The notes below the pieces were generated by a model. That model saw nothing but the letters and a program-made list of their open reading frames with translations, was not told where the DNA came from and searched no databases. Positions 10,900 through 61,303 of a DNA stretch of 64,000 bases are shown here, one piece after another; position 1 is the stretch's first letter, and the number at the start of each line of letters is the position of its first letter. The stretch lies in NCBI GenBank assembly GCA_951828385.1, contig OX639973.1, forward strand, positions 2,407,200 through 2,471,199. Direction: 5' to 3'. The stretch is from an uncultured Poribacteria bacterium (GTDB lineage Bacteria; Poribacteria; WGA-4E; WGA-3G). Both the position numbers and the translations under genes were made by a program.

Positions 10900-11042
10900 A
10901 TCTTTGGACCTTTGTCTGTCGCGTCTGATGCCCAAACAAACTGGAAACTAATGCATTTTTAGGATTGGTAAATCTTTAGCCCTCGTTAGTCGCGAGTTCC
11001 TTTCAACTAAAGCCTATAAGCGCAAATTGCATATAGTACCTT

Positions 11043-13175
11043 ATGAAAAAAATACCTTTATTTTTATTTTTTTATATTCTTTGCGGTGTAACCATGCTAA
11101 TTGTTGCAACCGAGCTGTTCTCGCAACGCGGTATGAGCGTTACTGTTCTCACAAAGAACGGGGAGGAATTTAACCTCTATAAAGATTCATACGCTTTGGT
11201 TATTGGAAATGGAGCATACCCCGTAAAGAACGGTTGGAATCCGCTCCCCGGTGCGATAAAGGATGTCAAAGAAGTCGCAGAAGTTCTTGAAAACCAAGGA
11301 TTTAATGTCACCCTGAAAATAGATGTGACAAAAGCTGAGTTTAACAAAGCGTTTTCGGAGTTCATCCATAAATCGGGGAAAGATAAAGATAACCGACTCC
11401 TGTTTTACTACGCGGGTCACGGTTACACGACGAAGGCGGCAACAGGTGAGGATCTCGGCTACCTCGTTATGCTCGATACACCGAGTCCTGAGAACACTGT
11501 CGAGTTTGATCTCTATAGTGTGGATATGGTCAAATTTGTGTCGGATTCCAAGAAGATTCATGCCAAACATGTCCTATTTATGTTCGATAGCTGCTTCTCA
11601 GGGACAGTGTTGAACCTGAGAAATCGTGTTACGCCCTCCCATATTACGGATCGGATTAAGAATCCTGTGCGCCAGTTCATCACAGCCGGTCGTGCGGATG
11701 AACCCGTGCCGGATAGGAGTGAGTTCAAGAAGGCGTTTTTGAACATCCTTGAAGGGCGCGTTGAAGAACCGACACCAGATGGTTACCTGACAGGTGTTGA
11801 GTTAGGAGATTACCTCTACCGAACGGTCCCAAAGTTCTCACGAGGACAACACCCACAACATGGGAAAATCCACGACCAGCAGCTCAATACAGGTGATTTT
11901 GTGTTTGTGCTTCCTCAAAACGATCAGAGCGGTAGTGAGGATACCGGTATTGAGTTGAACACGATAGCAACGTTGGACATAACCAGCACACCGAGTGGCG
12001 CAACGGTCTATGTTGATAGTATCGCAATCGGCATAACCCCCATTAAAGACTATCAAATTGATACCGGTATCCGTCTTGAAAAGCAGGTGAATGTCGGGTT
12101 GGAACTTTCAGGCTATAAGAGTCGTGTTAAGAAAATGACACTGAAAGGTGGTCAAGAGTTCCCTTGGGACGTATCTTTAGAAAAAATGGCCACACAACCC
12201 CTATTGCCGAAACCAAAGTCCGATATACAGGAAACAATAGTTGAGAAAGATGTTGATGTCAATGAGACGGAACCGGAGGAAATGACAAAAGAACCGGTGT
12301 CGCCAAAACAAAAGCCAAGTGTGCCAGAGATAATAGTTGAAGAAGATGTCAGCATCAATAAAAGAGAGCGTCTACCATCTACAGATTTGCCGCAGAGGAT
12401 TGTAGGCAAAGACGGTGCTGAAATGGTATTGATCCCGGCTGGGGACTTCCAGATGGGAAGCAACCATACTGGCGATTCTAATGAAAAGCCTGTGCATACG
12501 GTTTACGTTGATGCATTCTATATGGACATTCACGAAGTGACAGTTGGACAATATTATCAATTTACTGTTGCCACTGGACATCCCGCACCATCATACTCGC
12601 TTTCTCCATTTTCTCCGACAGATCGACATCCAATGGTCTATGTGAGTTGGCACGACGCGATGGCATACGCGAAATGGGCGGGTAAACGTCTACCGACAGA
12701 AGCAGAGTGGGAGAAAGCCGCACGCGGTGGCTATATTGGTCAGAAATATCCGTGGGGTAATGGTCCACCGGATGGGACCCAGTGTAATTTTGCGGATAAA
12801 AGCGGGGCGAACTCAGGCAGGTGGGAAAATTGGGATAAGAGTGCTGATGATGGTTACGTGTACACTGCTCCCGTCGGCAGTTATCCACCGAACGGATATG
12901 GTTTGTATGATATGGCAGGTAATGTATGGGAGTGGTGCTTTGATGCCTACGATGCGAATTTCTATGCAAGTTCTCCACCTCGGAATCCGATTGCAGGCAT
13001 CATTGTAACAAATATGACCGATAATTCAATAACTGTGAATGAATCTCGTGTGTTACGAGGCGGTTCTTGGACTCCTCATCCTCAAAATGTGCGTTCTGCA
13101 CACCGATGGTCATACGGAGCACATTCAGTGAGCTTCTCTGTTGGTTTCCGTTGTGTGAAACCAGTAACGCCTTGA
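11043..13175 (+). CDS. Caspase (C14) – FGE-sulfatase fusion protein, secreted (intact paralog)
   Basis: Signal peptide, caspase motifs AGHGY and DSCFSG, a Pro/Glu/Lys-rich linker, and a C-terminal FGE-sulfatase domain (RLPTEAEWEKAARGG, GNVWEWC, RGGSW). Confidence 0.8.
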   Translation: MKKIPLFLFFYILCGVTMLIVATELFSQRGMSVTVLTKNGEEFNLYKDSYALVIGNGAYPVKNGWNPLPGAIKDVKEVAEVLENQGFNVTLKIDVTKAEFNKAFSEFIHKSGKDKDNRLLFYYAGHGYTTKAATGEDLGYLVMLDTPSPENTVEFDLYSVDMVKFVSDSKKIHAKHVLFMFDSCFSGTVLNLRNRVTPSHITDRIKNPVRQFITAGRADEPVPDRSEFKKAFLNILEGRVEEPTPDGYLTGVELGDYLYRTVPKFSRGQHPQHGKIHDQQLNTGDFVFVLPQNDQSGSEDTGIELNTIATLDITSTPSGATVYVDSIAIGITPIKDYQIDTGIRLEKQVNVGLELSGYKSRVKKMTLKGGQEFPWDVSLEKMATQPLLPKPKSDIQETIVEKDVDVNETEPEEMTKEPVSPKQKPSVPEIIVEEDVSINKRERLPSTDLPQRIVGKDGAEMVLIPAGDFQMGSNHTGDSNEKPVHTVYVDAFYMDIHEVTVGQYYQFTVATGHPAPSYSLSPFSPTDRHPMVYVSWHDAMAYAKWAGKRLPTEAEWEKAARGGYIGQKYPWGNGPPDGTQCNFADKSGANSGRWENWDKSADDGYVYTAPVGSYPPNGYGLYDMAGNVWEWCFDAYDANFYASSPPRNPIAGIIVTNMTDNSITVNESRVLRGGSWTPHPQNVRSAHRWSYGAHSVSFSVGFRCVKPVTP

Positions 13176-13341
13176 ACTTTTTTACCTTTGTCTGATCCGC
13201 CTGATGCTCAAACAATTTGGAAACTGATGCATTTTCAGGATTGGTGAATCTTTAGTCTTCGTAGGTCGCGAGTTCCTTTCAACTAAAGCCTATAAGCACA
13301 AACTGCGTATAATATCCAATGAAAAAAATACCTTTACTGAT

Positions 13342-14676
13342 ATTTCTCAAAAGTTATTGTAAAGCAATGATTATCAGGGTTCTTTTGGTATTATTGTATG
13401 AAAATGCGTTATGAAGTCCGTAAGCGTCTGTCTTTCTCCAGTGAGTTGAAGTTGTATTTGATGAAAAGTGCGTCGTTCTGAGATGCTCATTTGTAGCAAC
13501 ATCAGATAACTCATCACTTTTATACCGAGGCTCACATACGCCCCTTGTCTGCTTTCGAGGCTCATGGCAGAGACGTGGAGGTTCGATTTGAAGTGCCGCC
13601 AAAACTGTTCAATACCGTGGTGTTGAGACCAAATCCTGAGAGCCTCAGAGGTGCGTAGGGGTTTTCCAAAGACTAAAAGGGTTCGTATCTTGCCTCTATC
13701 TCGGAAAAATAGGACGACACATTCCCCGAAAGTTGGACTTTCTGCTTTGAGGCGACAGGCGGGTTTATCACAGCCCCATTGATCCGCAGCCAGCGCCACG
13801 CGTCTTTTATGAACCGAAAGTTTCGCCTTTGTATCAGCGATAGTCATGACGTAGTTATTTTTTCCGTGAATCAATATAGAGGTAAACCCCAACTCCGATA
13901 AAGCCTCAACAAGTTTACGGCTCCCATACCATGAATCGAAGGTGATTGGATATTTTCTGATGTCTATGCCGTGGGTATCAAAGAACGCTAAGACTTCTTG
14001 GATCATGGTGATAACGAGAGTAGGTTTATCTGTGTTGCCGCGTCCTTGTTTACTGACGAGACGCATATCTAAGGGGATCACGCGATCTCCGCATTTCAGT
14101 GTGATGCCTAAGAGGTTCTGACACCAGATAGGCGTATTGTGTTTTTTCGAGTAGTAGTTTGAACAGTAAGATAACGTCTCGCCTTCACGCGGGAGATTGC
14201 TATCATCAATACTGACGGTGATACACCGCCGCGATTGTGTTGAAGCACTCTTACTTTCAGTGTCTTTGATGAAATCAACTGCCATCGCACATCCGAGCCG
14301 GAGATTCAAACATTTCGAGTGATAAAGGCTCAGGTTTCCAAGACTGCGATAAAGACGTGCTTTGGGAAGTTTCAAAGCATCGGCGACTTGATTCGGATTG
14401 TAAAGTCCAAAAAGATGGCAAACACAGAGCAGAAGTAGCGTCTCAACGATTTGCTGCCGCATCCGCTGAAAGTAAGAAGAAAGAAGGTCTTGAAAAAAGA
14501 TTGTAGATTTGATAAGGTGATCCTGCATGAGATGGCCTCCTAAAGGTTGTAGTTATCTCTTAGGATGCCATCTCATGCGCTAAAAATCAAGAAACTTTTT
14601 CAAAACCATCGCATTTTCACTTGGCTACACCTGCGATCTCTTGATTATTATTACCTCCTTGATAGATTTGAGAAAT
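13342..14676 (-). mobile_element. IS element of about 1.3 kb (IS701/IS4-like) inserted into codons 7-8 of the third caspase–FGE paralog
   Basis: The ends atttctcaaa... and ...tttgagaaat are imperfect inverted repeats. Upstream, 13176-13341 duplicates the promoter region and ATGAAAAAAATACC start of paralog 2. The flanks read through in frame (…ctg at|g cca gct…). Confidence 0.6.
13374..14528 (-). CDS. DDE transposase (IS701/IS4 superfamily-like)
   Basis: VSIDDSNLPREGE (DDT-like first Asp), FDSWYGS (second Asp), a downstream ...SLESRQG...K signature, and a length of 384 aa. Confidence 0.55.
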   Translation of the reverse strand: MQDHLIKSTIFFQDLLSSYFQRMRQQIVETLLLLCVCHLFGLYNPNQVADALKLPKARLYRSLGNLSLYHSKCLNLRLGCAMAVDFIKDTESKSASTQSRRCITVSIDDSNLPREGETLSYCSNYYSKKHNTPIWCQNLLGITLKCGDRVIPLDMRLVSKQGRGNTDKPTLVITMIQEVLAFFDTHGIDIRKYPITFDSWYGSRKLVEALSELGFTSILIHGKNNYVMTIADTKAKLSVHKRRVALAADQWGCDKPACRLKAESPTFGECVVLFFRDRGKIRTLLVFGKPLRTSEALRIWSQHHGIEQFWRHFKSNLHVSAMSLESRQGAYVSLGIKVMSYLMLLQMSISERRTFHQIQLQLTGERQTLTDFITHFHTIIPKEP

Positions 14677-16711
14677 GCCAGCTTTATTTCTATTTTTTTG
14701 TATTCTTTGCGGTGTAACCATGCTTATTGCTGCAACCGATTTGTTTTCGCAACGCGGTATGAGTGTTACCGTCCAGACCGAGAGTGGAGAAGAGTTCGGT
14801 CTCTATAAAGACTCCCATGCGCTGATTATTGGAAATGGTGCATATCCCGTGGAGAACGGTTGGAATCCGCTTCCGGGTGCAGTGAAAGATGTTAAAGAAG
14901 TTGCAGAGATCCTTGAACGCCACGGATTCAAAGTAACCCTGAAAATAGATGTGACAAAGACTGAGTTCAATGAGGCATTTTCAGAATTTATCTACGATTT
15001 TGGTAAAGATCCGGACAACCGACTTCTATTTTACTACGCGGGTCACGGTTACACGACGAAGGCGGCAACAGGTGAGGATCTCGGCTACCTCGTCATGCTT
15101 GATACGCCAAGTCCTGAGAACGCCGCCAAGTTTGATCTGTATAGTGTGGATATGGTCAAGTTTGTATCCGACTCCAAGAAGATCCACGCCAAGCATGTGC
15201 TATTTATGTTTGATAGCTGCTTTTCTGGAACGGTGCTCAATCTTAGGAATCGGGTTACACCATCCCACATTACAGATCGAATCAAAAATCCGGTGCGTCA
15301 GTTCATCACAGCAGGTCGTGCCGATGAACCTGTGCCGGATAGGAGTGAGTTCAAGAAGGCGTTTTTGAACATCCTTGAAGGGCGCGTTGAAGAACCGACA
15401 CCAGATGGTTATTTGACAGGTGTCGAGTTAGGGGATTACCTCTACCGAACGGTGCCGAAGTTCTCACGAGGACAACACCCGCAACATGGAAAAATCCACG
15501 ACCAGCAGCTAAACACCGGTGATTTTGTGTTCGTACTTTCTCAAAACGATCAGAATGGTAGCGAGGATAACGGTATTGAGTTGAACACGATAGCGACGTT
15601 GGACATAACCAGCACACCGGCGGGCGCGAAAGTCTACGTTGACGGCAACTGGATTGGTACGACTCCGTTGCGCAGTTATCAATTTGATACGGGTATTCGT
15701 CTTGAAAAACAGGTGAATGTCGGCTTAGAGCTTTCGGGTTACAAAAGTCGTGTTAAGAGAATAACGCTAAAAGGCGGTCAACAGGTCCCGTGGGATGTGC
15801 ATTTAGAAAAGATAGAAAGAAAGCCGATACAACCGAAGCCGAGCGTGCCAGAAACACCTCCTGAGAAAGGTCCGAGTATCAGTGAAGAAAAACTGTTGAT
15901 TTCCCGGAATACGCTACAGACAATAGTTGGAAATGACGGTGCTGAGATGGTACTGATTCCAGCCGGCGAATTTGAGATGGGGCACAATGGTACGGCAATA
16001 ACAAAACCTGTGCACACTGTCTACGTTGATGCATTTTACATCGATAAATACGAGGTCACTGTTAGGCAATACAATCAATTCGTTCGTGCCACTGGACATC
16101 CTCCCTTACCGGATTCAGTATCTAAGTATTCTCCAACAGATCAACACCCCGTTGTCCTTGTGACTTGGGATGATGCGATGGCATACGCGAAGTGGACAGG
16201 AAAAAGACTTCCGACAGAGGCGGAATGGGAGAAAGCGGCGCGCGGTGGTTTAGCAGGAAAACGGCATGCCTGGGGCGATGCTGCGCTGGATGGAACACAG
16301 TGTAACTTTGCAGATAAGAGTTTGAACGAAGTGTGGGAGAAAGAAAGAAAACCAGAAGATAATTGGGCGGATAAAAGTATTGATGATGGTTACACACACG
16401 CTGCTCCTGTCGGTAGTTATCCACCGAATGGATATGGTTTATACGATATGGGGGGGAATGTGGCAGAATGGTGCTTTGATGCGTATGATGAAAATTTTTA
16501 TGCCAATTCTCCGCGTCGCAACCCAATAGCAGATATACTTATAAGAGATGGTGAAAATAATATAGTCGCTATTAATAAATTGCGCGTTTTGCGAGGTGGT
16601 TCTTGGTACTATTCGCAAGGGACAGTGTGGATCGCCAGTCGCCTTGGGATTGATCCCAAAAACGCGGCGAGCAGCCAAGGTTTTCGTTGTGCGAAATCGG
16701 TAGATCCTTAA
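14675..16711 (+). CDS. Caspase (C14) – FGE-sulfatase fusion protein. The N-terminus was rebuilt by the IS insertion, with the ATG lying at the IS junction.
   Basis: MPALFLFFCILCGVTMLIAA retains a hydrophobic leader. Caspase and FGE motifs are as in the paralogs. Confidence 0.7.
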   Translation: MPALFLFFCILCGVTMLIAATDLFSQRGMSVTVQTESGEEFGLYKDSHALIIGNGAYPVENGWNPLPGAVKDVKEVAEILERHGFKVTLKIDVTKTEFNEAFSEFIYDFGKDPDNRLLFYYAGHGYTTKAATGEDLGYLVMLDTPSPENAAKFDLYSVDMVKFVSDSKKIHAKHVLFMFDSCFSGTVLNLRNRVTPSHITDRIKNPVRQFITAGRADEPVPDRSEFKKAFLNILEGRVEEPTPDGYLTGVELGDYLYRTVPKFSRGQHPQHGKIHDQQLNTGDFVFVLSQNDQNGSEDNGIELNTIATLDITSTPAGAKVYVDGNWIGTTPLRSYQFDTGIRLEKQVNVGLELSGYKSRVKRITLKGGQQVPWDVHLEKIERKPIQPKPSVPETPPEKGPSISEEKLLISRNTLQTIVGNDGAEMVLIPAGEFEMGHNGTAITKPVHTVYVDAFYIDKYEVTVRQYNQFVRATGHPPLPDSVSKYSPTDQHPVVLVTWDDAMAYAKWTGKRLPTEAEWEKAARGGLAGKRHAWGDAALDGTQCNFADKSLNEVWEKERKPEDNWADKSIDDGYTHAAPVGSYPPNGYGLYDMGGNVAEWCFDAYDENFYANSPRRNPIADILIRDGENNIVAINKLRVLRGGSWYYSQGTVWIASRLGIDPKNAASSQGFRCAKSVDP

Positions 16712-16735
16712 ATCGTTATTTCTTATTTTCAACCT

Positions 16736-18898
16736 ATGAAACACATTATCATTTTACTTGCCTTAACGCTCCTTGCCTTGAATGCTTATAGTGCCAAAGA
16801 GGACTGTCATAACCTTGCCGGAGCGGGACCACAACCGATCCGAAAAGTCGCCAATGAAAACCTTGGCACTATCAACGACTATGAAACTGTTGTCAAAGAG
16901 GATACACGCGATGGTGTGACCTATCTATCCTTTATCGGTGGTAGCCAGCCCAAACCGAACGCCTGCGGACTCAATCCGAAAAACGCCAGACTCAACTGGA
17001 CAGGTTGGGGCGGTCCTATTGATACCGATAACGCCAGTATCGGTCAAGGTGTTGGGTTTCGTAACGAAATCGTTATTGGTGGTATCTATTTTGAGCGCGG
17101 ACTCGGTACGCATGCGAACGCCAAGATCATCTATAACCTCACTGGCGGCGATTATGTTAAATTTGAAGGGTATATCGGCATGTCAGACGAGACGGATCCA
17201 GATGCTTGTGGTAATGCTGGAAGTTCGATTTTTACTTTTAAGGTTGATGATAAGACAGTTTTTGAATCCGGAACCATCCAGGGCGCGGTTAACGGACTGA
17301 ATGTCCCACCAGTGAGAGTTTCTTTTGATATTCCCCCCAATGCGAAAGAGCTCGAAATCATCATCAATACTACAGAGGACGGAGCCTGTGCTGATCATGC
17401 AACGGTTGCTGATGCTAAACTCCTTGATGCTGATGCTGCAGCCACCACTACAACCCCTGAGACACCGATGACCGTCACGACAAGTAAACGGCTGGTGCGT
17501 GTCATCTATTTCGTGCCACTTAACCAGGCGCGGCAATGGAATTTTGAGGATACGCTTGATATACAACTGAAAGAGGTGCAGCAGATCTACGCTGAGCAGT
17601 TAGAAGAACACGGTTACGGCAGAAAAACTTTTGAAATCGAAACGGACAGCGACGGTAAGGTTGTAGTGCATTTTATCTCTGGTAGACAAAGTGACAAATA
17701 CTATCACACTGACACAATCCGCAAAGTTACTGATGAAATCAAGGCGCGCTTTAATGTTGAGCGCGATGTTTATCTCGTTGCTATTGAAAGCAGTGCAGAA
17801 CTGATTGAAGGAAGCTGCGGTGTCGCGTATTTAGATGGTGGCCCCGCGCTTGTCATATCGGCTGGTGATTGTGTCTCTAGTGATTACGGTGTCCCGTTGA
17901 TTGCGCATGAGCTCGGGCACGCCTTTAACTTAGAACACGATTTCCAGGACGATAGTTATTTTATGTCCTACGGGAGTAGTCGCCGAAAGTTTTCGGCATG
18001 CTCCGCAGCTGCGTTGAGCGTCAGCCCGTTCTTGAATCAAGAAGATCCTTATATCGCGACTGGTAATGGACAGTCTACAATGGAATTGGTTTCAGAACCG
18101 GTCTATCCGGAAAATGGCAGCAGTCATACGCTCCAGTTCAAAGTGGGTGACGCAGAGGGTATTCACATTGTTCACTTTCTTGTACCGCATCGCACTATAG
18201 ATCCGATGACCTCCAGCACAGGGGCAACGGTCTACGATTGCAAGAAACTCAACGATGTTAAAAGCGCGACCGTCTCATTTGAATTGCCGGAATACTTTAT
18301 GACTTTCCGTACCAATAAGGTCCATATCCGCATGTTTGATGTCCAGGGCAGCAGTATCGCGAAGGAGTGGACACTTACTGCTGACAATATAGAACCTATC
18401 ATTGTTGAGAACCACACGGATGTCAATAGCGATGGTGTGGTCAATCTCGTCGATCTTGTGATTGTCGCGTCGCGGTACGGTGAACGTATCACAGGCGATC
18501 CGAACCCGAATCCCGATGTCAATCGCGACGGCATTGTGGACATCAACGACCTTATTCTTATCACAAACGAGATGCCTGTCGGTGTTGCACCTACACAACT
18601 CCCAATCGCTACACAACTTTTTCATAACTACCCCAACCCGTTCAACCCTGAGACGTGGATACCGTATATACTCTCGTACTCCGCCGATGTCTCTATTGAG
18701 ATCCATGCAACCGATGGCAACCTCGTTAGACGCTTGGCAATCGGACAGCAACCGGCAGGCCTCTACGTAAACAAAGCGAATGCCGCCTATTGGGATGGCA
18801 GAAACGCCTTTGGTGAACCTATCGCAAGCGGTCTCTATTTCTATACGCTCATTGCTGGTGATTATGCAGCAACCCGCAAAATGATCATCCGAAGATGA
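16736..18898 (+). CDS. Secreted multidomain zinc metalloprotease: NPCBM-like domain, metzincin-like HELGHAFNLEHD site, dockerin type-I repeat pair, and a T9SS-like C-terminal sorting domain
   Basis: Signal peptide. NPCBM-like segment GTHANAKIIYNLTGGDYVKF...EDGACADHATVADAKLL. HEXXHXXXXXH with downstream Asp. DVNSDGVVNLVDLV...DVNRDGIVDINDLIL. C-terminal NYPNPFNPETWIPY...LYFYTLIAGDYAATRKMIIRR. Confidence 0.6.
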   Translation: MKHIIILLALTLLALNAYSAKEDCHNLAGAGPQPIRKVANENLGTINDYETVVKEDTRDGVTYLSFIGGSQPKPNACGLNPKNARLNWTGWGGPIDTDNASIGQGVGFRNEIVIGGIYFERGLGTHANAKIIYNLTGGDYVKFEGYIGMSDETDPDACGNAGSSIFTFKVDDKTVFESGTIQGAVNGLNVPPVRVSFDIPPNAKELEIIINTTEDGACADHATVADAKLLDADAAATTTTPETPMTVTTSKRLVRVIYFVPLNQARQWNFEDTLDIQLKEVQQIYAEQLEEHGYGRKTFEIETDSDGKVVVHFISGRQSDKYYHTDTIRKVTDEIKARFNVERDVYLVAIESSAELIEGSCGVAYLDGGPALVISAGDCVSSDYGVPLIAHELGHAFNLEHDFQDDSYFMSYGSSRRKFSACSAAALSVSPFLNQEDPYIATGNGQSTMELVSEPVYPENGSSHTLQFKVGDAEGIHIVHFLVPHRTIDPMTSSTGATVYDCKKLNDVKSATVSFELPEYFMTFRTNKVHIRMFDVQGSSIAKEWTLTADNIEPIIVENHTDVNSDGVVNLVDLVIVASRYGERITGDPNPNPDVNRDGIVDINDLILITNEMPVGVAPTQLPIATQLFHNYPNPFNPETWIPYILSYSADVSIEIHATDGNLVRRLAIGQQPAGLYVNKANAAYWDGRNAFGEPIASGLYFYTLIAGDYAATRKMIIRR

Positions 18899-19272: not shown

Positions 19273-21348
19273 ATGGGGAATCGACATTTGGCAGGAAACA
19301 CGGCTGACGGCACCGCCCTCATCAGAACTGATCCGTTGCTGAAACCTTACACTGCCCAACTGCGCGAGCGGTTTGCGCACTATCAACGTTTCAAAGCAGA
19401 GATTGAGAAAACGGGTGGTGTATTAGGCAAGATTAGCCAAGGACACCAATATTTCGGTTTCAACCGTGGCGAACACGAAGGCGAAACCGGGGTCTGGTAC
19501 CGCGAATGGGCACCCGGTGCGGAGCGGCTTGCGCTCATCGGCGATTTTAACGACTGGTCGCGCGATGCGAACCCGATGTCCGTTGATGATTGGGGTGTGT
19601 GGCACATCTTTTTGCCTGACAGCGAATATGCTGATCGGTTCACACACGGCAGCCGCGTCAAGGTGCATGTTGTCAGTAGGGACGAGGTGACCTCGCCCCT
19701 ACGTGGACTTGATCGGATTCCGGCATATATCCAGCGCGTCGTTCAGGAAGGCGATGCTGATTTCGCAGGTCAGTATTGGGCACCACAGCATCCGTATCAG
19801 TGGCAGCACCGTGCACCCGATTTTGACATCAACGCTGAAGGATTGCGGATTTACGAAGCGCATGTCGGCATGGCGCAAGAAGCAGAGAAGGTCGGAACAT
19901 TTGTTGAGTTTACGCAAAACATCTTGCCCCGAATTGTGGATTTAGGCTATAACGCTGTGCAGCTAATGGCGGTGATGGAGCATCCGTATTATGCGAGTTT
20001 CGGGTATCACGTGAGCAACTTTTTCGCTGTCTCAAGCCGTTTCGGAACACCGGAGGAGCTCAAGGAGCTCATTGATACGGCGCACAGTATGGGGTTGCTG
20101 GTTATCATGGATCTGGTGCATAGCCATGCGGTTAAAAATCTCAACGAAGGGTTGAGCCGTTTTGATGGCACGGAACATCAGTATTTCCACGCCGGGGCGA
20201 AAGGTGAACACGTCGCATGGGATTCGCTATGCTTCGATTATAGCAAATACGAGGTACAACGTTTTCTACTGAGCAATATTCGCTACTGGTTAGAAACCTA
20301 TCGGTTTGACGGATTCAGATTTGATGGTGTCACGAGTATGCTCTATAGCGATCACGGGTTAGAACGAGAGTTCACGGGCTATGCCGATTACTTTGACACC
20401 GATGTTGAACTGGACGCTATCGCCTACCTGATGTTGGCGAATGCGGTTGTTCATGCTGTCAACCCGGCTGCTATTTCGATTGCTGAAGACATGAGCGGTA
20501 TGCCCGGCCTTGCACGTCCTACCGAAGAAGGTGGACTCGGCTTCGATTATCGGCTTGCAATGGGGATCCCAGATTATTGGATTCGGTTGTTGAAGGAGAA
20601 ACAGGACGAAGCGTGGCAGATCGGCGAGATTTACGGTATGCTACGCGACCGCCGTGCAGGTGAAAAACACATCGCTTACGTCGAAAGCCACGACCAGTCG
20701 ATCGTCGGCGATAAGACGCTTGCTATGCAACTCATGGACACTGAACTCTACACGAACATGAGTGTTTCCACGACGAGCCATCTGATTTCTCGCGGCGTTG
20801 CGCTCCATAAACTCATCCGACTCCTGACGTTTAGTTTAGGTGGCGAGGGGTATCTGAACTTTATAGGAAATGAGTTCGGACACCCTGAATGGGTTGATTT
20901 TCCACGCGCAGGAAACAATAACTCCTACAAGTATGCGCGCAGGCAGTGGCACCTCGTTGAAGATGACACCCTCCGTTACAAACATCTCAACACTTTTGAC
21001 CGCGCGATGCAGCACCTCGATGCAACCTACCATCTGCTTGCTGATGCGGATATTCAACTTTTATGTATTCATGAGGAAGCGAAACAGATCGTTTATGCGC
21101 GGGGTGGACTCGTCTTTGCTTTCAACTTTCATCCGACTGAATCTGTTACGGATTGGCGTATCCCTGTGCCTGAGAAGACGGATTACCGACGCGTTCTCAA
21201 TACCGATGATACGGCATTCGGAGGCTACGGTGCTGTAGAGGGTGTCCATTATCCGTGGCAAGATGTTGCGATAGAGGGGCAGGCGCAATCGATTCAACTC
21301 TATGTCCCTGCCCGAAGTGCGCAGGTGTTAGTATCTGGTCATAAATAG
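19273..21348 (+). CDS. glgB: 1,4-alpha-glucan branching enzyme, GH13 (eukaryote-type GH13_8-like)
   Basis: GH13 catalytic regions FRFDGVTSMLY, GNEFGHPEW, ESHDQS and DLVHSHA. The length of about 690 aa is typical of eukaryote-like branching enzymes. Confidence 0.75.
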   Translation: MGNRHLAGNTADGTALIRTDPLLKPYTAQLRERFAHYQRFKAEIEKTGGVLGKISQGHQYFGFNRGEHEGETGVWYREWAPGAERLALIGDFNDWSRDANPMSVDDWGVWHIFLPDSEYADRFTHGSRVKVHVVSRDEVTSPLRGLDRIPAYIQRVVQEGDADFAGQYWAPQHPYQWQHRAPDFDINAEGLRIYEAHVGMAQEAEKVGTFVEFTQNILPRIVDLGYNAVQLMAVMEHPYYASFGYHVSNFFAVSSRFGTPEELKELIDTAHSMGLLVIMDLVHSHAVKNLNEGLSRFDGTEHQYFHAGAKGEHVAWDSLCFDYSKYEVQRFLLSNIRYWLETYRFDGFRFDGVTSMLYSDHGLEREFTGYADYFDTDVELDAIAYLMLANAVVHAVNPAAISIAEDMSGMPGLARPTEEGGLGFDYRLAMGIPDYWIRLLKEKQDEAWQIGEIYGMLRDRRAGEKHIAYVESHDQSIVGDKTLAMQLMDTELYTNMSVSTTSHLISRGVALHKLIRLLTFSLGGEGYLNFIGNEFGHPEWVDFPRAGNNNSYKYARRQWHLVEDDTLRYKHLNTFDRAMQHLDATYHLLADADIQLLCIHEEAKQIVYARGGLVFAFNFHPTESVTDWRIPVPEKTDYRRVLNTDDTAFGGYGAVEGVHYPWQDVAIEGQAQSIQLYVPARSAQVLVSGHK

Positions 21349-21356
21349 TATTTGTT

Positions 21357-21385
21357 TTGACAATTAGATCTTTATGTGATATAAT
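21357..21385 (+). promoter_or_regulatory. Perfect sigma70-type promoter TTGACA-17-TATAAT (with TG extended -10)
   Basis: ttgaca attagatctttatgtga tataat, 19 nt upstream of the 21404 ATG. Confidence 0.6.
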
Positions 21386-21403
21386 AGCCATAAGTTATAG
21401 ACA

Positions 21404-21880
21404 ATGCAAAAACGCATCTACATTGAAACAACAATTCCAAGTTCTTACTATACGTTGCGAACCGATGAAGAATCACTTATTAGACAGAAATTGACTCGGC
21501 AATGGTGGGATGAATATGCTAATCTTTTTACCCTGACTTCAAGTACTGCTGTGATTGATGAACTTGTGGAAGGCAGCAGGCAAGTAACATTAGATCGGCT
21601 TGCTTTACTTGATAGTGTTGAGATGTTTAATCCTACAGTTGAGAGTGTACAAATCTCGCAGATTTACATTGAAAAATTGATAATGCCGCAAAAACCAGGA
21701 GGTGACGCGCTTCACTTAGCGATTGCATCGTTTCATCAAATAGATGTAATTCTTACATGGAATTGTATGCACCTTGCTAATCCTAATAAATTTGATTTTA
21801 TCGCTCGGATCAACACGGAATTGGGTTTAACAACTCCAGAATTAAAAACACCGCTTGATTATTTAGGAGGGATTACATAA
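21404..21880 (+). CDS. Hypothetical protein, possibly PIN-like nuclease fold (candidate toxin)
   Basis: Weak VapC-like pattern: IYIETT at the N-terminus, DALHLAIA in the middle, and ILTWNCMHLAN near the C-terminus. It overlaps the next ORF by 1 nt. Confidence 0.3.
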   Translation: MQKRIYIETTIPSSYYTLRTDEESLIRQKLTRQWWDEYANLFTLTSSTAVIDELVEGSRQVTLDRLALLDSVEMFNPTVESVQISQIYIEKLIMPQKPGGDALHLAIASFHQIDVILTWNCMHLANPNKFDFIARINTELGLTTPELKTPLDYLGGIT

Positions 21881-21881
21881 A

Positions 21882-22118
21882 ATGGTAAAGCGAGAGGATC
21901 TATTAAGACCAGAAATGAATGAAGTCGTTAAGGAAGTTCGCGAAATGCGGATGAAAATTTCAGAAAAATGCGGACACGATCTTAATCGTTTATTTGCATA
22001 CTACCAAAAAGTAGGTGAGGAAATGCGGAAGTCCGGTAAGTATAAGTTCGTCAATCCGGAACCGCCTGCTGAGAAACCCGCGCCCACAGAATCGCCTCGT
22101 GGTGAAACTGCAGATTAA
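21882..22118 (+). CDS. Hypothetical small charged protein, translationally coupled to the 21404 ORF
   Basis: 78-aa ORF starting 2 nt after the upstream stop. Confidence 0.25.
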   Translation: MVKREDLLRPEMNEVVKEVREMRMKISEKCGHDLNRLFAYYQKVGEEMRKSGKYKFVNPEPPAEKPAPTESPRGETAD

Positions 22119-22339
22119 GATGTTGTATTACCTTTGCCCGAATACGTGCCGTATGGACGGTGTTTTCCTCCTCGGAAAACTAGGGCCAGCCAACCGTGAC
22201 CTCTATCGCTACGGTATGTCTATGTTGGGTTGCTGGAGCCAGACACTCCAGCTTTTTTTATACGTGCATTTCGTGATAGGCGCGCTGCTGACACGGTTTG
22301 TAGCCGCGTGTCTTGAGCGCGCCAAACCGAAACTTTCTA

Positions 22340-23224
22340 TCACGTCGTATTATTATCCAATGAATACTCACGGTTTCCACCGGGCCCGCCACCGATTGCC
22401 CATGTACCACGGAACAACGATTGCCGCTTCGGTGGCATCGTTTCGATGACTTCATGGCTCAGGTTCAACCGATGCCACTGCGCCCAAATGGAGTTATAGC
22501 AATTGAAAACCGCGCATCGGGGGTTTGAAGGATTCGTCCAATCATTCGCGGCATGCACAAGGCTTTCAGTGAAAATGACAACAGAACCCGGTGGGCAGCT
22601 ATAGTCGTCCATCATCTCGCGCATGCTCCCCTCCCAAGGCGATTCGCCGATATTCGGTCGATACTTGTCGGGACCGCCGTAGTTGAAATGCGCTTTATGG
22701 GACCCACTGAGGAAAGAAGTAGCACCTTGTCCTGCCTTCACCTCTTCAAGTTCCCAAACGACGCGCGTCAACCCCGCGAAGATCTTTCCACCAGCCACCT
22801 GATACCGCATCGCATTTGCCTGTTGTGGTGGACGCACGACGTGTGGTAGCCCGTTATCGCCGCGTTCGGATATGCTCCAACCGGGGGGACGAACCGTCGT
22901 GAAAGACCCTTCACATCGGAATCCGTAGCAGTCGTCGCGCACAAAAGGATCCTCGGACAGAATCTCATTCAGAACGCCGACAATTGCTGGATGGTCGAGC
23001 AGACTCTGTAGGGCACCTTGATAACTCTGTCTCGCACCTGCATACACTTCCGCTTTCATCTCTTCGATTTCTGAGTCCGATAATATTGATGGCAATAAAA
23101 TCCAACCGCGGAGATCGAAGAAGAATTTCTGCTCCGGTGTCATCGGAATCGTTGCATCATTTGATGTTTCTTTTGCCATTGAAATCTCCTTCATAGTTAT
23201 TAACAAGCTCTCTATGAACCACAA
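22340..23224 (-). CDS. Phytanoyl-CoA dioxygenase (PhyH)-like Fe(II)/2OG oxygenase family protein
   Basis: N-terminal L..EQKFFFDLRGWILLPS and C-terminal SGSHKAHF resemble the PhyH family. It is about 75% identical to its tandem neighbour. Confidence 0.5.
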   Translation of the reverse strand: MWFIESLLITMKEISMAKETSNDATIPMTPEQKFFFDLRGWILLPSILSDSEIEEMKAEVYAGARQSYQGALQSLLDHPAIVGVLNEILSEDPFVRDDCYGFRCEGSFTTVRPPGWSISERGDNGLPHVVRPPQQANAMRYQVAGGKIFAGLTRVVWELEEVKAGQGATSFLSGSHKAHFNYGGPDKYRPNIGESPWEGSMREMMDDYSCPPGSVVIFTESLVHAANDWTNPSNPRCAVFNCYNSIWAQWHRLNLSHEVIETMPPKRQSLFRGTWAIGGGPGGNREYSLDNNTT

Positions 23225-23299
23225 CTGTTATAAATCGGGGTTACAAACCCCTCCTACAAGAACGCTCACACATAGGTGGCAACTTAATTGCTCTCAGAA

Positions 23300-24169: not shown

Positions 24170-24197
24170 ATCCTTTTATCGGTAAACTGTCCAAATA

Positions 24198-26042: not shown

Positions 26043-26109
26043 ATATCCGTTGCGAAATTATAACACAATATTGAAATAGATGTCAAATTCGTGTCAGCGT
26101 CTATTACCC

Positions 26110-26138
26110 TTGACAACCTTACCGAAAGTAACTATAAT
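26110..26138 (+). promoter_or_regulatory. Perfect TTGACA-17-TATAAT promoter
   Basis: ttgaca accttaccgaaagtaac tataat, upstream of the 26247 ORF / glgP. Confidence 0.55.
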
Positions 26139-26246
26139 ATATCTTGAAACCTTGTGCGACATCTTTTGATTTTGTATAAGAAATTTTCGGCGTAAACTGC
26201 GCAAGGCATCGGTTAAAATGTATTCAAAAAACCCCTCAATTTTTAT

Positions 26247-56535: not shown

Positions 56536-58602
56536 ATGGGCTTTACTATAACTCCAGAGAGACAAACGAATTCCTACTACCCATATAGGAGAATACGCCT
56601 TGTGAAAATTAATAGATTCATATTTGCAATTATATTCACCGGATTGCTACTGATTGTCACACCCGGAGGCATCACACACGCCCAAGAATGGATGCCGGAT
56701 GCGATCCTCCGCCATGCCATCTCCGAGAAGTTGGGGATTGAAACACTAACGATTGCGGATATGCAACGCCTCGATCACTTTGTGGCTGATGGTAAATTCA
56801 AGGCTGATCTTAGAGAAATTCAGAGTCTTAAAGGGTTGGAACACGCCATCAATCTTAAATTCTTAGCCATCAATTTTACGAAAGTGTCGGATATAACACC
56901 GCTTGCGGGACTCGAAAATTTACGCGGCTTAGGGTTGGGTCATAATAGGATTACGGATATAACACCCCTCGCCGGTTTGATACACTTACAAGAGTTGAAC
57001 TTGCAAGATAACCAGATTTCAGATACTTCGCCGCTTAAAGGGTTGGTGAACCTCAAAGTGTTGGACTTAGCAGGAAATCAGATCGTCGATTTTACACCGA
57101 TTTATGGGCTTACCGGCATAGAAACATTACGTCTGGGTCTGACAGGATCAGGGATATCTTTAGACTCAGAAGTCTTGCAGAGGCTGAATCCGGTAGACGG
57201 GCCAGTTGTTTGTGAAATAGCAAGAGCACCTATACACTCTCGCCTTGAAAACATAACGTACCCATCAGTTTTTCAAGCCTGTGGGGATATAATCAATCTG
57301 CCAGAACTTTCGCGGGCGGAGGGGATAGCGTATCACGATCTGTTTTTCTGCCGTGAAACATTCGGGTGGACTTGGATTCCTACGTCAGGCGGAAAACTGA
57401 GATTAAGAGGAGACCTTGAGGAGGCCACGAGAGCAACAGATCAAATACGCTCTCAGAATCCAAATATGCTTTTCCTTACAAGCATAGAGTACTATGTTGC
57501 GAATCGAGACGAATATCCAGAAGATTGGCCATATTGGTTCAGAAATGGATCCGGAAATAGATTAGAAATTACGGGATGGGATCAATATGTAAAAGACTTC
57601 ACGCATCCTGCTGTGCAAGAGATGGTTATCCAACAAGCGATTGAAGTTGCAAAATGTGGGGTTTTTGACGGAATTGCCATAGATCATTGGGCGAAGGCAC
57701 TTGAAGGATATATAACCGTAGAAGAAGCCGATACCGCAAAGGATCGTATCATACAAGGGATTCGTGATGCTGTTGGTGAGGATTTCTTGATACTGGTAAC
57801 GACGACTAACACGATTGGCACGACTATTCCGAGGCATGCGGAATATATCAATGGACTTTTCATGGAAACTTATGAAGATTATGAGGGCGGTTATACCTAC
57901 GCAAAACTTTCTGAAATTGAAAGCACGCTGTTGTGGGCTGAAGAAAACCTCCGAGAGCCGCAAATCAACTGTTTGGCAGGCAGGGGCGTTAGGAGCGAAC
58001 CGCTGGATTCTCCGAGAAATCTACAATGGATGCGTCTGTGGACGACGATGAGTTTGACGCATTCAGATGGCTATGTCATGTTTACTATGGGAGGTGGCCT
58101 TGACCATCCCCCCCACGTCTTTGAATTTTTGCCGGGTCATGCGGATGCTCATGCACAGGGCATACGTCACACTCACCAAAACACGAAGTACTGGTACGAC
58201 TTCTGGGAGGCGGATCTCGGTCAACCGGTTGGTGGCGACGAAACCAAAGCGCAGCTTTATGAGGATCGCGAGGGGTTGTTTATCCGGGAGTTCACTAACG
58301 GTTGGGCGGTGTATAATCGGTCTGGTACAGCACAGGAGATAGAACTTCCGCAGGCGGTTTCCGGCTGGTCGAGCGGTGTGGAGAATCAACACCGGCATAC
58401 GTTGGCGGATTTGGACGGTGAGATTTATTTGAAGGTGCCCGTCGTGATGGCGGATGTCAATGGTGATGGCACGGTGAATGTGTTGGACCTCGTCATCGTC
58501 GCTAATGCGTTGGGGGAAGCGGCACCGGATATCAATGGCGATGGCACCGTTGATGTCTTAGATTTAGTGTTGGTCGCGAACGCCTTCAAAGACCCCCAAT
58601 AA
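56536..58602 (+). CDS. Secreted LRR plus glycosidase-like domain protein with a C-terminal dockerin type-I repeat pair
   Basis: Hydrophobic leader. LRRs. A conserved core ([14 protein letters not shown]...LTHSDGYV...[14 protein letters not shown]...[14 protein letters not shown]). [14 protein letters not shown] / [14 protein letters not shown]. Confidence 0.6.
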
Positions 58603-58738: not shown

Positions 58739-61303
58739 ATGAAAATCAAGCCCTCTTTTTGCTACAGTTTCCACCTTCTTTTTATGTTTTTCTATCTCAG
58801 TCTTACGCCTGTGCACGCCCAAGACTGGCTCCCTGATCCAGTGTTACGGAAAACGATTCGGGAATCTCTGGGGCTACCGGCAAACACACCGCTGACAAAA
58901 GACCGTATGCAACAACTGATAAGTCTTGATGGAGTTAACAAAGGCATCACGGATCTCCGGGGTTTAGAGTTTGCGACGCACCTAAGAATCCTGCGCTTGG
59001 GAGGTAATGAGAATAACATCACAGATATCCGTCCGCTTGCCAACTTAACAAGTCTTGTAGGGCTTCATATCTGGCGTGTTCGGCGACACGACACGCATCG
59101 GGCACCCCTCGACATCCGTCCGCTTGCCAATCTCGTCAACTTAGAGGTGCTCTCTCTGGAACGACAGGGACTTTCGGATATAAGCGTGCTTGCGAACCTA
59201 ACAAAGCTTCATAAGTTAGCACTGACGCACAACAACATCGTCGACTTTAGCCCGTTAGCAGGATTGACACATCTGCGGACGTTGTGGATAAAAAACAACT
59301 GGGGGACGGATTTGAGTCCACTTGAAGGGTTGAATATTACAGATTTCCGCTATGACGAAGTGTGTGATTTCACACCGGAAGGGGAGTCCGTCACTGCGCG
59401 TGTTGAGAACAGAACATTTCCGTCGATAGTCGCGCTGTTTCCGAAAGGGTCAATAGAGGAGATGACCCGGTATGATTTCTATTATGGCACCCATTTCGGG
59501 TTGTGGTGGAAGCGAACGGAAACCGAGCCGACACACGGCTTAGCGATTCGATTTTCAGGGGATATTGTGCAAGCCAGAGAGCACCGCCAACAGATGCTCC
59601 AACAGAATCCAAATATGTTGTTTTTTCTCGGGGTAGCTTTGCATAACCACAACCCTCCCGTTGCGGCAACGGCTTTTCCAGCAGATTCCGATTTTTGGCT
59701 GCGAGATCGTCAAGGGAATATCATCCAGAATGCGAATGATGCGTGGATGTTCAATATTTTGAACCCAGCGTTACAGAATATGCTGATTGAACGAATTGTA
59801 GGCTTTGCAAAGTGCGGTATTTTTGATGGTGTCCTGTTAGATGAAATGGGAAACTATGGTATTGGCGGATCAGGTCACGCGTTTTACCCGGCAATAACAG
59901 ATGTGCCCTTAACGAAGGAAGCGATTATTGAGGCGCACATCCGAATTCTAAGCGAGGTCCGCGCCCGCGTTCCTGAGGACTTTTTGATCGTCGTCAATGC
60001 TACGAGACACAAAATTCCACTCGTTGCGGCATACATCAATGGTAATGTGATGGAACCGGGTTCGGATTATTCATACAGAGGACTTGCCGAGATTGAAAGC
60101 ACTTTACTTTGGTCTGAGGAACATTTCCGAGAACCGCAGCTGAATTGGGCACAAGGGTTTCTTATCACCTCGGAACCCCCGGAGAGTCCTGGGAACCGTC
60201 AACGAATGCGGCTCTTTACAACGATGGGACTCACACACTCCGATGGCTACATAAACGTCCACTATCATTCACAGAGTTGGCAGCGGTGGGGAGATGTCGC
60301 TGCAAATCACTGGTATGACTTCTATGATGCCGACCTCGGCACGCCGATCGGCGAAACAGCGCAACGCTGCGACGACTGCGAAGGTCTCTTCGTGCGTGAG
60401 TTCACCAACGGGTGGGCGGTCTACAACCGGAGCGGCAAAGCACAGACGATCCAATTGCCCGTCAAAGCCACGGGTGTCGCAAGTGGTATCACAAACACCC
60501 AACATATCGTCCCCGATTTAGATGGTGAGATATATCTGAAACAGGCACCCAGTGTGAATAGCGTTGGCATTGTCACCGTGCTTGCGGTTGCGACCGGGGC
60601 GCCGCAGGAACCCGAATCCGCATGGATGCCGGATGCCGCCTTGCGAGCGGTAGTTCGCGAAGAAATGGGGCTTCCAACACATATCGCTTTGGAAAAATCC
60701 CGTATGCCACAGTTAATCCATGTTGACGGAAACAACAAAGGCATCACAGACCTGACGGGTTTGGAGTTTGCGACGAACCTAAGAAACTTGCACGTGGGGG
60801 GTCATAAGAATCAGATAACCGACCTTCGCCCGCTTGCGAACTTGACGAGCCTCGCGCATCTCTATATCTGGCGGATACCGCCAAACACGCGTCTTGTCGC
60901 ACTTGACATCCGTCCGCTCGCCAATCTTATCAACTTAGAGGCACTCTCACTGGCGGGAAACGGGATTACCGATATAACCCTACTGGCGGGCATGAAGAAG
61001 CTCGGCAAACTCATCCTTACAGATAACCGGATTGAAGACTTTAGTCCGCTGGCTAAACTGATAAGTTTACGAACGTTGAGGATTCGGAACAACCCCGGCA
61101 CAGATTTCAGCCCACTTGCCGCTTTACCCCTTATCGATTTTCGCCTTGATGCCGATGTCAACGCCGATGGATTTGTGAATGTGCTCGACCTTGTTACCGT
61201 CGTCAACGCATTTGGCGAAACTGACCCCGATCTCAATGGCGATGGCGTTGTCAATATTCAGGATTTGGTCATTGTGGCGAACGCCTTCAGAGACCTCCAA
61301 TAA
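58739..61303 (+). CDS. Secreted LRR – glycosidase-like – second LRR module – dockerin protein (internal LRR duplication)
   Basis: Signal peptide. The LRR block near residues 30-200 is re-used at about 630-800 (WMPDAALRAVVREEMGLP...). Dockerin pair DVNADGFVNVLDLV / DLNGDGVVNIQDLV. Confidence 0.6.
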   Translation: MKIKPSFCYSFHLLFMFFYLSLTPVHAQDWLPDPVLRKTIRESLGLPANTPLTKDRMQQLISLDGVNKGITDLRGLEFATHLRILRLGGNENNITDIRPLANLTSLVGLHIWRVRRHDTHRAPLDIRPLANLVNLEVLSLERQGLSDISVLANLTKLHKLALTHNNIVDFSPLAGLTHLRTLWIKNNWGTDLSPLEGLNITDFRYDEVCDFTPEGESVTARVENRTFPSIVALFPKGSIEEMTRYDFYYGTHFGLWWKRTETEPTHGLAIRFSGDIVQAREHRQQMLQQNPNMLFFLGVALHNHNPPVAATAFPADSDFWLRDRQGNIIQNANDAWMFNILNPALQNMLIERIVGFAKCGIFDGVLLDEMGNYGIGGSGHAFYPAITDVPLTKEAIIEAHIRILSEVRARVPEDFLIVVNATRHKIPLVAAYINGNVMEPGSDYSYRGLAEIESTLLWSEEHFREPQLNWAQGFLITSEPPESPGNRQRMRLFTTMGLTHSDGYINVHYHSQSWQRWGDVAANHWYDFYDADLGTPIGETAQRCDDCEGLFVREFTNGWAVYNRSGKAQTIQLPVKATGVASGITNTQHIVPDLDGEIYLKQAPSVNSVGIVTVLAVATGAPQEPESAWMPDAALRAVVREEMGLPTHIALEKSRMPQLIHVDGNNKGITDLTGLEFATNLRNLHVGGHKNQITDLRPLANLTSLAHLYIWRIPPNTRLVALDIRPLANLINLEALSLAGNGITDITLLAGMKKLGKLILTDNRIEDFSPLAKLISLRTLRIRNNPGTDFSPLAALPLIDFRLDADVNADGFVNVLDLVTVVNAFGETDPDLNGDGVVNIQDLVIVANAFRDLQ

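Follow-up and report, generated by a model that had tools for sequence, protein, structure and literature searches.

A poribacterial metalloprotease of the OgpA/AMUC_1438 type that carries a dockerin and a type IX-like C-terminal sorting domain

The closest described relatives of the gene product reported here are two metzincin O-glycopeptidases of Akkermansia muciniphila, AMUC_1438 and OgpA. The gene lies at 16736..18898 (+ strand) of a 64,000-nt stretch of contig OX639973.1 from an uncultured Poribacteria bacterium, which is called the window below, and it encodes 720 aa from an ATG start. AMUC_1438 (PDB 8DEK/8DF2) is a characterized, Tn-antigen-dependent enzyme bearing an NPCBM/CBM51-like module (PMC9513282). 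OgpA (PDB 6Z2D/6Z2O/6Z2P) cleaves N-terminal to O-glycosylated Ser/Thr; its active site is composed of H205/E206/H209/H215, and the enzyme is a two-domain unit in which a beta-sandwich contributes to the glycopeptide cleft (PMC7518263). These two proteins founded a large, mostly environmental family outside the MEROPS classification (PMC9513282). Concerning the C-terminal half of the protein, Kamke et al. (2014) found tails of the TIGR04183 type on many poribacterial proteins (PMC3909097), and for 'Ca. Stygibacter' (Cloacimonadota) a cellulosome-like complex has been predicted, in which dockerin-bearing enzymes are held on a cohesin scaffoldin with a type IX secretion system (T9SS) C-terminal domain (CTD) (PMC8542988).

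The original prediction had read an NPCBM module, a zinc site, a dockerin repeat pair and a T9SS-type tail in this one protein, and Pfam, NCBIfam and the sequence itself confirmed all four; domain matches above curated hidden Markov model (HMM) thresholds are not due to chance. From the N-terminus, and all on the + strand, the protein is composed of a Sec-type signal peptide (aa 1-20, MKHIIILLALTLLALNAYSA, 16736..16795), judged by eye from a hydrophobic core followed by A-Y-S-A; an NPCBM/NEW2 (CBM51-like) carbohydrate-binding module (aa 81-234, 16976..17437); an Ala/Thr-rich linker read from the sequence (DADAAATTTTPETPMTVTTSK, 17426..17488), which is variable among orthologs; a metzincin catalytic domain of the OgpA/AMUC_1438 O-glycopeptidase type (aa 250-440, 17483..18055); a beta-sandwich domain (aa 445-556, 18068..18403), all-beta in the AlphaFold2 (AF2) model; a type-I-like dockerin with two calcium-binding loops (aa 561-613, 18416..18574); and a T9SS type-A-like sorting domain that ends at the last residue (aa 630-720, 18623..18895). 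Comparison with 14 orthologs, which are 47-87% identical to the target, shows little or no variation in the zinc site, the two dockerin loops and the tail. The source organism is Candidatus Poribacteria; the target is 100% identical to a database protein on a contig of 6,656,312 bp, and the named database relatives of the target are entered as 'T9SS type A sorting domain-containing protein [Candidatus Poribacteria bacterium]'. As an overall explanation, we consider it fairly probable that the product is a secreted, and probably surface-displayed, metalloprotease targeting O-glycoproteins.

The protease and its family

The original prediction assigned the correct class, metzincin, and the family can now be specified. 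Pfam suggested a reprolysin, because its only peptidase matches were two borderline ones, Reprolysin_5 (27.1, cut-off 27) and Reprolysin_4 (23.4, cut-off 22), covering only aa 318-417. A sequence search of PDB with the whole protein matched the start of the catalytic domain, unexpectedly, to OgpA, annotated as 'O-glycan protease', and to an Akkermansia 'NPCBM/NEW2 domain-containing protein'. We then built a profile from 23 homologs of aa 240-560 and ran it against PDB with hmmsearch; it found OgpA (6z2d) with an E-value of 1.6e-15 and AMUC_1438 (8dek) with 5.5e-13 (8DEK/8DF2 about 6e-13), whereas the best reprolysins, astacins and ADAMTS had E-values of at least 1e-3 and M12 structures of at least 1.2e-3. 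An AF2 model of aa 240-560 (pLDDT 88.7, pTM 0.87) was searched with Foldseek, and ranks 1-9 were all OgpA or Amuc_1438 (E=1.6e-17 to 5.6e-14; template-modeling (TM) score 0.61-0.64), in alignments of 339-363 columns that span both the catalytic domain and the beta-sandwich; all the remaining PDB matches had a TM score of at most 0.25, and no M12 structure was among the significant whole-domain matches. Because the profile and the predicted fold both match OgpA/AMUC_1438, we file the protease with these O-glycopeptidases and not with the reprolysins; membership in MEROPS M12B, which was the candidate raised by Pfam, was ruled out by the same matches.

The zinc-binding and catalytic motif HELGHAFNLEH (aa 391-401, with H391, E392, H395 and H401; 17906..17938) has the layout of OgpA H205/E206/H209/H215 (PMC7518263). 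None of its H, E, G, H and H varies in the alignment of 23 sequences, and HExxHxxxxx[HD] is kept in 144 of 145 family representatives. M410 in DSYFMSYG (17963..17965) is a candidate for the Met-turn methionine, as suggested by ortholog conservation: M410, Y412 and G413 are invariant in the 14 orthologs, and M410 is not invariant in the wider alignment of 23 sequences.

OgpA gives the best profile match and, over the two-domain unit, also the best fold match (E=1.6e-17, TM score 0.63), and the two enzymes share the zinc triad, the catalytic Glu and presumably the Met-turn logic (PMC7518263), but OgpA has no carbohydrate-binding module, dockerin or CTD, and the identity in the fold alignment is 14-15%. 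AMUC_1438 resembles the target in the metzincin domain followed by a beta-sandwich, HExxHxxxxxH, an NPCBM/CBM51-like module and a signal peptide (profile E=5.5e-13, Foldseek E=1.5e-15). It differs in that its NPCBM is C-terminal whereas that of the target is N-terminal, in the low identity of the fold alignment (about 16-17%), and in lacking the dockerin and the T9SS-type CTD of the target; in addition, the short distance of 9 residues between the third His and the Met of the target and the glycan-binding residues were not matched. The target's NPCBM scored 81 bits with Pfam PF08305 at aa 89-229 (cut-off 23.9). For this region, the PDB search with the whole protein found 7js4_A (E=3.4e-24), 2vmh (E=1.6e-9) and 2vng (E=5e-7), and also 2ygl and 2vmg, all of which we take to be CBM51 modules. 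The same attribution is given in PMC9513282.

The protease family is large: 3,327 cluster representatives at 50% identity were found at E<=1e-3, and 1,120 at E<=1e-30. Among the 145 best new representatives, a CTD was present in 75, a dockerin in 61, both in 47 and an NPCBM in eight.

Tail, dockerin and cohesins in Poribacteria

The resemblance of the tail to a T9SS sorting domain, as proposed originally, has HMM support, since TIGR04183 ('T9SS type A sorting domain', NCBIfam) scored 30.8 bits at aa 632-719 against a cut-off of 23. The motifs NYPNPFNP, LYFYTL and KM that had been quoted for it are present, the last one within KMIIRR in the region at the extreme C-terminus. The tail is a FlgD_ig-like 'NYPNPFNPETWIPY...' variant that is extremely conserved within Poribacteria and in most cases follows a dockerin; unrelated architectures (WD40, leucine-rich repeat (LRR), cohesin and peptidase proteins) share nearly identical final ~90 residues, and a 100-aa tail segment used alone found 2,371 protein clusters at E<=1e-6. 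In related loci, 152 open reading frames (ORFs) bear this CTD; in 150 of them it ends no more than 3 residues before the C-terminus, and 115 have an N-terminal hydrophobic segment. The AF2 model of the tail is a beta-sandwich (pLDDT 87.5), for which Foldseek found PorU (6za2, E=5e-5), PorZ (5m11, E=2e-4) and the CTDs of cargo on the translocon of F. johnsoniae (8glk_D and 8gl8_D; TM score 0.62-0.67 on the target). Like the type-A CTD cargo of Bacteroidota (for example gingipain RgpB and F. johnsoniae cargo), the target has a signal peptide and a C-terminal beta-sandwich tag of ~80-90 aa that passes TIGR04183. We also observed many proteins of 100-170 aa that are little more than a CTD (P0058-P0177; P numbers denote protein relatives and L numbers loci); because several of them sit on megabase-size Poribacteria contigs, not all can be assembly fragments.

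The dockerin scored 30 bits with Dockerin_1 (Pfam PF00404; aa 561-612, cut-off 22.9) and matched PDB 2y3n_B in a sequence search (E=2.5e-6). Its loops DVNSDGVVNLVD (aa 562) and DVNRDGIVDIND (aa 594) are canonical duplicated F-hand calcium-binding loops, as judged by Asp/Asn at positions 1, 3, 5, 9 and 12, and the AF2 model shows two helices. The two further dockerin genes that had been pointed out in the window are real: 56536..58602 (+; Dockerin_1 35.2 bits) encodes an LRR-GHL15 protein (LRR_4) ending in the dockerin, and 58739..61303 (+; Dockerin_1 25.6 bits, GHL15 56.6 bits) encodes an LRR-GHL15-LRR protein with a C-terminal dockerin and a signal-peptide-like N-terminus. Neither carries a CTD. 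The protein of 56536..58602 is likely to be another client of the same cohesin network.

Relatives of the target itself carry cohesins: in P0027-P0032 the main difference is that cohesin modules stand ahead of the dockerin, with Pfam Cohesin (PF00963) scores up to 84.6 bits. On a closed Poribacteria chromosome of 5.65 Mb, four adjoining genes encode an NPCBM-cohesin-cohesin-dockerin-CTD protein, a dockerin-thioredoxin protein, a cohesin-peptidase-cohesin-dockerin-CTD protein whose peptidase is of the same family as the target, and a cohesin-only protein of 243 aa. We searched for this cohesin type in a set with one genome for each species and confirmed it in 125 places; the 77 loci kept are from ~50 metagenome-assembled genomes (MAGs), and 75 of these loci are titled Poribacteria and two 'uncultured bacterium'. 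Among them are bins from sponges and corals as well as closed chromosomes, with up to 7 loci per chromosome. When 983 ORFs of the cohesin loci (~1.4 Mb of Poribacteria DNA) and the window were classified with home-made HMMs, the commonest architecture was X-cohesin-dockerin-CTD (72 plain, in addition to variants), followed by CTD-only (25), dockerin-CTD (21) and cohesin-only (14).

The combination of dockerin and CTD is thus a standard design in Poribacteria. The original prediction had held that a dockerin and a T9SS tail in one protein imply two different attachment logics, a view that does not hold as a clash: because the cohesin-dockerin-CTD cassette is the commonest architecture, because the CTD is C-terminal and because cohesin-only lipoproteins exist, the two appear complementary, with the tail as the sorting or anchoring tag of each protein and cohesin-dockerin pairs linking tagged proteins to one another and to lipoprotein cohesins. 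A cohesin scaffold had also been expected elsewhere in the genome. Cohesins do occur in the lineage, in ~50 MAGs, but the dockerin is predicted to find its partners among other CTD-tagged proteins and among small lipoproteins with cohesins, not on a single scaffoldin of the classical kind.

The cohesin-only proteins in question have 170-270 aa and a lipoprotein signal peptide with a lipobox Cys (L033:8203-8820, L053:9360-9884, L057:3306-3896, L075:672-1250 and L001:16449-17213), and they are candidates for lipid-anchored docking sites of dockerin proteins. In some other cohesin proteins, of the form cohesin-dockerin-dockerin or, in L053, cohesin alone, a long poly-aspartate tail replaces the CTD (L053:9923-11530, L057:848-2293 and L057:4051-5166). 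A multi-pass membrane protein of 653-672 aa with DUF6785 and DUF6784 (546 bits; cluster of L040:12851-14869) neighbours cohesin genes in 11 loci.

The complex predicted for 'Ca. Stygibacter' is similar in combining cohesin-dockerin assembly with a T9SS-type CTD for display on the producer's own surface and in containing peptidases and glycosidases, not only cellulases (PMC8542988). There, however, one large scaffoldin holds the cohesins and the CTD while the enzymes have a dockerin only, whereas the enzymes of Poribacteria carry both dockerin and CTD and very often a cohesin; the architectures suggest that individually tagged proteins dock to one another in a mesh that also includes lipoprotein cohesins. 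With the clostridial cellulosome, Poribacteria share the duplicated F-hand type I dockerin (PF00404) and Pfam cohesin modules in the partners. They differ in being of Gram-negative type, as outer-membrane barrels are encoded, with no S-layer homology (SLH) or sortase anchoring, and in that the cargo consists mainly of LRR, WD40, peptidase and NPCBM proteins, not of cellulases.

Export machinery and the rival explanations

T9SS components had been named in the original prediction as something to search for in the genome, and the question of the machinery is answered only in part for Poribacteria: the PorV/PorQ family is there, and the core translocon, motor and sortase were not found in a partial screen of ~1.8 Mb of Poribacteria DNA. 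Judged from family models, Poribacteria encode two conserved outer-membrane barrels of the PorV/PorQ family. A PorV2-like barrel of 352 aa, in L050 and L065, lies directly upstream of a cohesin-dockerin-CTD gene; it scored 109 bits with the NCBIfam PorV/PorQ family model (cut-off 90) and matched 'putative type IX sorting system protein PorV2' with E=4e-39, below the equivalog cut-off of that model. It has 2,086 relatives, the top 120 of which are at least 58% identical, and NCBI lists some of them under the name 'PorV/PorQ family protein [Candidatus Poribacteria bacterium]'. In the same two genomes, a DUF6785 protein is encoded directly upstream of the PorV2-like gene (L050:5670-7631 and L065:5483-7444). 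A PorV1-like barrel of 373 aa, found in L048 on a closed 5.5-Mb chromosome, scored 186.8 bits with NF033709 (cut-off 90) and matched the PorV model over its full length (E=7.5e-29), and in PDB it matched F. johnsoniae PorV alone (E=2.2e-11). This second barrel recurs in metagenomes at 53-89% identity, and is always followed by a conserved exported protein of 265-308 aa. The latter protein, ending in ...RKRF/VFRF, starts 18-26 nt downstream of the barrel gene (L048:15222-16040(-), L083:11140-11955, L089:11124-11921 and L091:11111-12037); neither NCBIfam nor PDB contains a relative of it, and we regard it as a candidate partner in the sorting pathway. An upstream protein of 729 aa and the DUF6785 membrane neighbour matched neither an NCBIfam T9SS model nor PDB.

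The machinery screen used ORF size, the operon context of FGE-sulfatase genes and comparison of ~37 selected exported proteins with NCBIfam, Pfam or PDB. For SprA and PorU, ORF size was examined over 1.4 Mb, and every ORF of at least 1,500 aa was CTD cargo or an LRR/cohesin-dockerin protein. No operon of the gldK type was found in the same 1.4 Mb, the FGE genes being cohesin fusions or enzyme-like. In distant metagenome loci, CTD-bearing genes beside PorV were considered as PorU and rejected, since they proved to be related to the 'T9SS-dependent M6-like inactivated metalloprotease'. A homolog search with the CTD alone was uninformative for a PorU-like sortase, because its listing is biased to proteins of 100-170 aa. 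In the literature searched, nothing relevant on Poribacteria with T9SS, dockerin or cohesin was found beyond PMC3909097, and no explanatory account of 'PorV2' or of a 'type IX sorting system' was found.

Putting these features together, we propose the following course. The signal peptide would take the protein across the inner membrane by the Sec pathway, and the type-A CTD would serve as an outer-membrane sorting tag, as in T9SS cargo, which a PorV-family barrel may recognize with the help of further machinery. Outside the cell, the dockerin would bind in a calcium-dependent manner to cohesins on CTD-tagged proteins or small lipoproteins, so that enzymes and binding proteins would be cross-linked into a multi-protein surface coat. 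The NPCBM/CBM51-like module may bind galactose-type glycans and guide the cleavage, and the metzincin would cut the peptide backbone beside O-glycosylated Ser/Thr of mucin-like glycoproteins, for example those of the host or of particles.

Several observations weigh against parts of this proposal, and they are best considered with the alternatives that they favor. The CTD could be a structural immunoglobulin (Ig)-like sandwich of the FlgD_ig type, or a tag of an unrelated export route; there would then be no T9SS, the protein would exit by a different pathway, such as vesicles or type II secretion, leaving the dockerin as its sole attachment. Such an alternative appears unlikely to us; the points in its favor are as follows. 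Por structural genes were not found by Kamke et al. (2014) in single-cell genomes of Poribacteria, for which the pathway 'remains to be revealed' (PMC3909097), and T9SS is described in the literature as confined to Bacteroidota (PMC10994853, PMC11611037). Poribacteria are listed among candidate phyla incertae sedis, outside the Fibrobacteres-Chlorobi-Bacteroidetes (FCB) group (NCBI taxonomy), and SprA/Sov, PorU, PorK/L/M/N (GldKLMN) and PorP were not seen in the partial screen of ~1.8 Mb. Within the window, no T9SS component was found among the 46 ORFs of at least 150 aa, and PorV-like tblastn baits had no match. On the tail, Pfam Por_Secre_tail (PF18962) reached 20.9 and falls short of its cut-off of 27, while FlgD_ig (aa 648-704, 27.9 against 27) scores as well; FlgD Ig domains of the hook cap are among the top fold matches with similar scores, and the predicted fold, a generic beta-sandwich, is consistent with a type-A CTD and does not discriminate. 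Both PorV-like proteins are below the strict PorV/PorQ equivalog cut-offs, Pfam PorV gives only 16 bits for the PorV2-like one, and these FadL-like barrels could have another function. On the other hand, TIGR04183 is above its curated cut-off, and the domain behaves as a sorting tag in occupying the extreme C-terminus in 150 of 152 ORFs behind unrelated N-terminal modules. Moreover, the phylum has two conserved paralogs of the PorV/PorQ family whose only PDB relative is the CTD-binding PorV, and the best fold matches of the tail include the CTDs of PorU and PorZ and those of translocon-bound cargo.

It is also possible that the enzyme is a general, glycan-independent metzincin like the reprolysins, with the NPCBM merely tethering it to polysaccharide-rich particles or to host matrix; we find this rather improbable. 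It is favored by the borderline Reprolysin_4 and Reprolysin_5 matches, which are the sole peptidase matches in Pfam, and by the glycan-recognition residues of AMUC_1438 (D166, Y171 and Y217), which recognize the O-linked N-acetylgalactosamine and are not confidently alignable to the target: in a profile alignment whose mapping is unreliable here, Y217 stands opposite G385 (with Y384 adjacent), and D166 and Y171 fall in a gapped region, so that glycan dependence of the target is a prediction. The OgpA family is moreover very diverse in sequence (15-17% identity in fold alignments), so specificity may differ. Against it, profile and fold prefer the O-glycopeptidases, with E-values lower by over 9 orders of magnitude than those of M12, astacin and matrix metalloproteinase structures, and cover the accessory beta-sandwich as well, and the pairing of NPCBM and metzincin is shared with AMUC_1438. 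A further alternative concerns the dockerin, which may have no cohesin to pair with and act as a calcium-binding stabilizer or spacer, or bind a non-cohesin partner. Peer and colleagues are said to have reported in 2009 that non-cellulosomal dockerins are widespread; no cohesin was found among the 46 window ORFs of at least 150 aa scanned in these 64 kb, and the genome of the window is absent from the 77 kept cohesin loci. We nevertheless regard an unpaired dockerin as quite unlikely, considering that one conserved cohesin type occurs in ~50 Poribacteria MAGs at up to 7 loci per chromosome, usually in dockerin polypeptides and also in small lipoproteins, that the insertion of cohesins in front of the dockerin is the main feature setting paralogs of the target (P0027-P0032) apart from it, and that both calcium-binding loops are canonical and conserved.

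The proposal of a secreted O-glycoprotein-targeting metalloprotease can be extended to the phylum in a more speculative form, which we put forward as a doubtful possibility. Poribacteria may run a divergent or reduced type IX-like sorting, consisting of the two PorV-family barrels and further partners such as the protein of 265-308 aa; it would export a very large family of CTD proteins, whose enzymes and adhesins would assemble by themselves into a mesh by means of the cohesin-dockerin cassette, including O-glycopeptidases that attack mucin-like glycoproteins of the host. Dockerin proteins that lack a CTD, for instance those encoded at 56536 and 58739 of the window, could be brought to the surface or kept there through docking partners that have the tag.

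Genomic neighbourhood and biological meaning

The target closes a cluster of co-directional genes that encode caspase-PEGA-(NPCBM)-FGE-sulfatase proteins. Its upstream neighbour (14675..16711, +), a caspase-PEGA-FGE-sulfatase protein according to Pfam, has its stop codon 24 nt before the start of the target, and the gap (16712-16735, ATCGTTATTTCTTATTTTCAACCT) has no Shine-Dalgarno-like purine run. No terminator-like site was found in these 24 nt; a promoter and terminator scan gave counts equal to the shuffled expectation and was uninformative. In L082, which holds an ortholog with 78% identity, the gene order and the 24-nt spacing are the same, and the target is presumably co-transcribed with the gene at 14675..16711. 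The region 6227-16711 contains 4-5 paralogous exported proteins with caspase (Peptidase_C14), PEGA and FGE-sulfatase domains, and its synteny is kept in L082. FGE-sulfatase genes were considered as general companions of the peptidase family and rejected, as they were found in only 2 of 22 cases and are specific to this locus.

Two genes of this region, 7885-9453 with caspase, PEGA and the N-terminal part of an NPCBM, and 9751-10899 with the C-terminal part of an NPCBM and FGE-sulfatase from a TTG start, are probably halves of one gene, separated by a frameshift, a pseudogene mutation or another disruption; the syntenic L082:2000-4564 is a single intact gene for an 854-aa caspase-PEGA-NPCBM-FGE-sulfatase protein. 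A DDE transposase gene (DDE_5/DDE_Tnp_1; 13374-14528, -) lies between two caspase-PEGA-FGE-sulfatase genes, and its counterpart site in L082 has only 154 nt. Directly downstream of the target is a glycogen-metabolism cluster (19273-32682) with branching-enzyme-like, glycogen-synthase-like, DUF3417-phosphorylase and glucose-1-phosphate adenylyltransferase genes, interrupted by two genes for PhyH-family dioxygenases, a UPF0236-like gene and the histidine-biosynthesis gene for IGPD. An IS200/IS605 element (51765-53338, +), composed of TnpA (IS200 family, 137 bits) and then the RNA-guided endonuclease TnpB (236 bits), is located just upstream of an unusual fusion gene (53814-56351, +), in which an extracytoplasmic function (ECF) sigma factor with regions 2 and 4 is joined to a long LRR and GHL15-like part. 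This fusion gene lies directly upstream of the two LRR-GHL15-dockerin genes, with bodies 38-45% identical, and in L048 a gene for a homolog with 49% identity forms a divergent pair with the PorV1-like gene.

Few uncultured symbionts of marine sponges are as abundant as Poribacteria. Each module of the target is already known, the poribacterial tail has been on record since 2014 (PMC3909097), and NCBI labels relatives as T9SS sorting-domain proteins. New in comparison with the literature searched are the fusion of an O-glycopeptidase of the OgpA/AMUC_1438 type to a dockerin and a CTD, the phylum-wide cohesin-dockerin-CTD cassette, and the two conserved barrels of the PorV family in a phylum outside the FCB group. 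The target gene is a clear example of the design of the phylum, an enzyme with both tail and dockerin. As the tail is used massively and is usually coupled to the cohesin-dockerin cassette, a self-assembling surface coat is implied rather than a classical scaffoldin. The main interest of the gene lies in the export pathway of its tail: PorV is the T9SS component that binds CTDs, and the two PorV-family barrels make the export question testable, while the existence of closed Poribacteria chromosomes does the same for the translocon and the motor. Finally, the OgpA/AMUC_1438 family is extended into a marine symbiont lineage as a large and modular group, whose members could act on mucin-like glycoproteins of the host or of particles.

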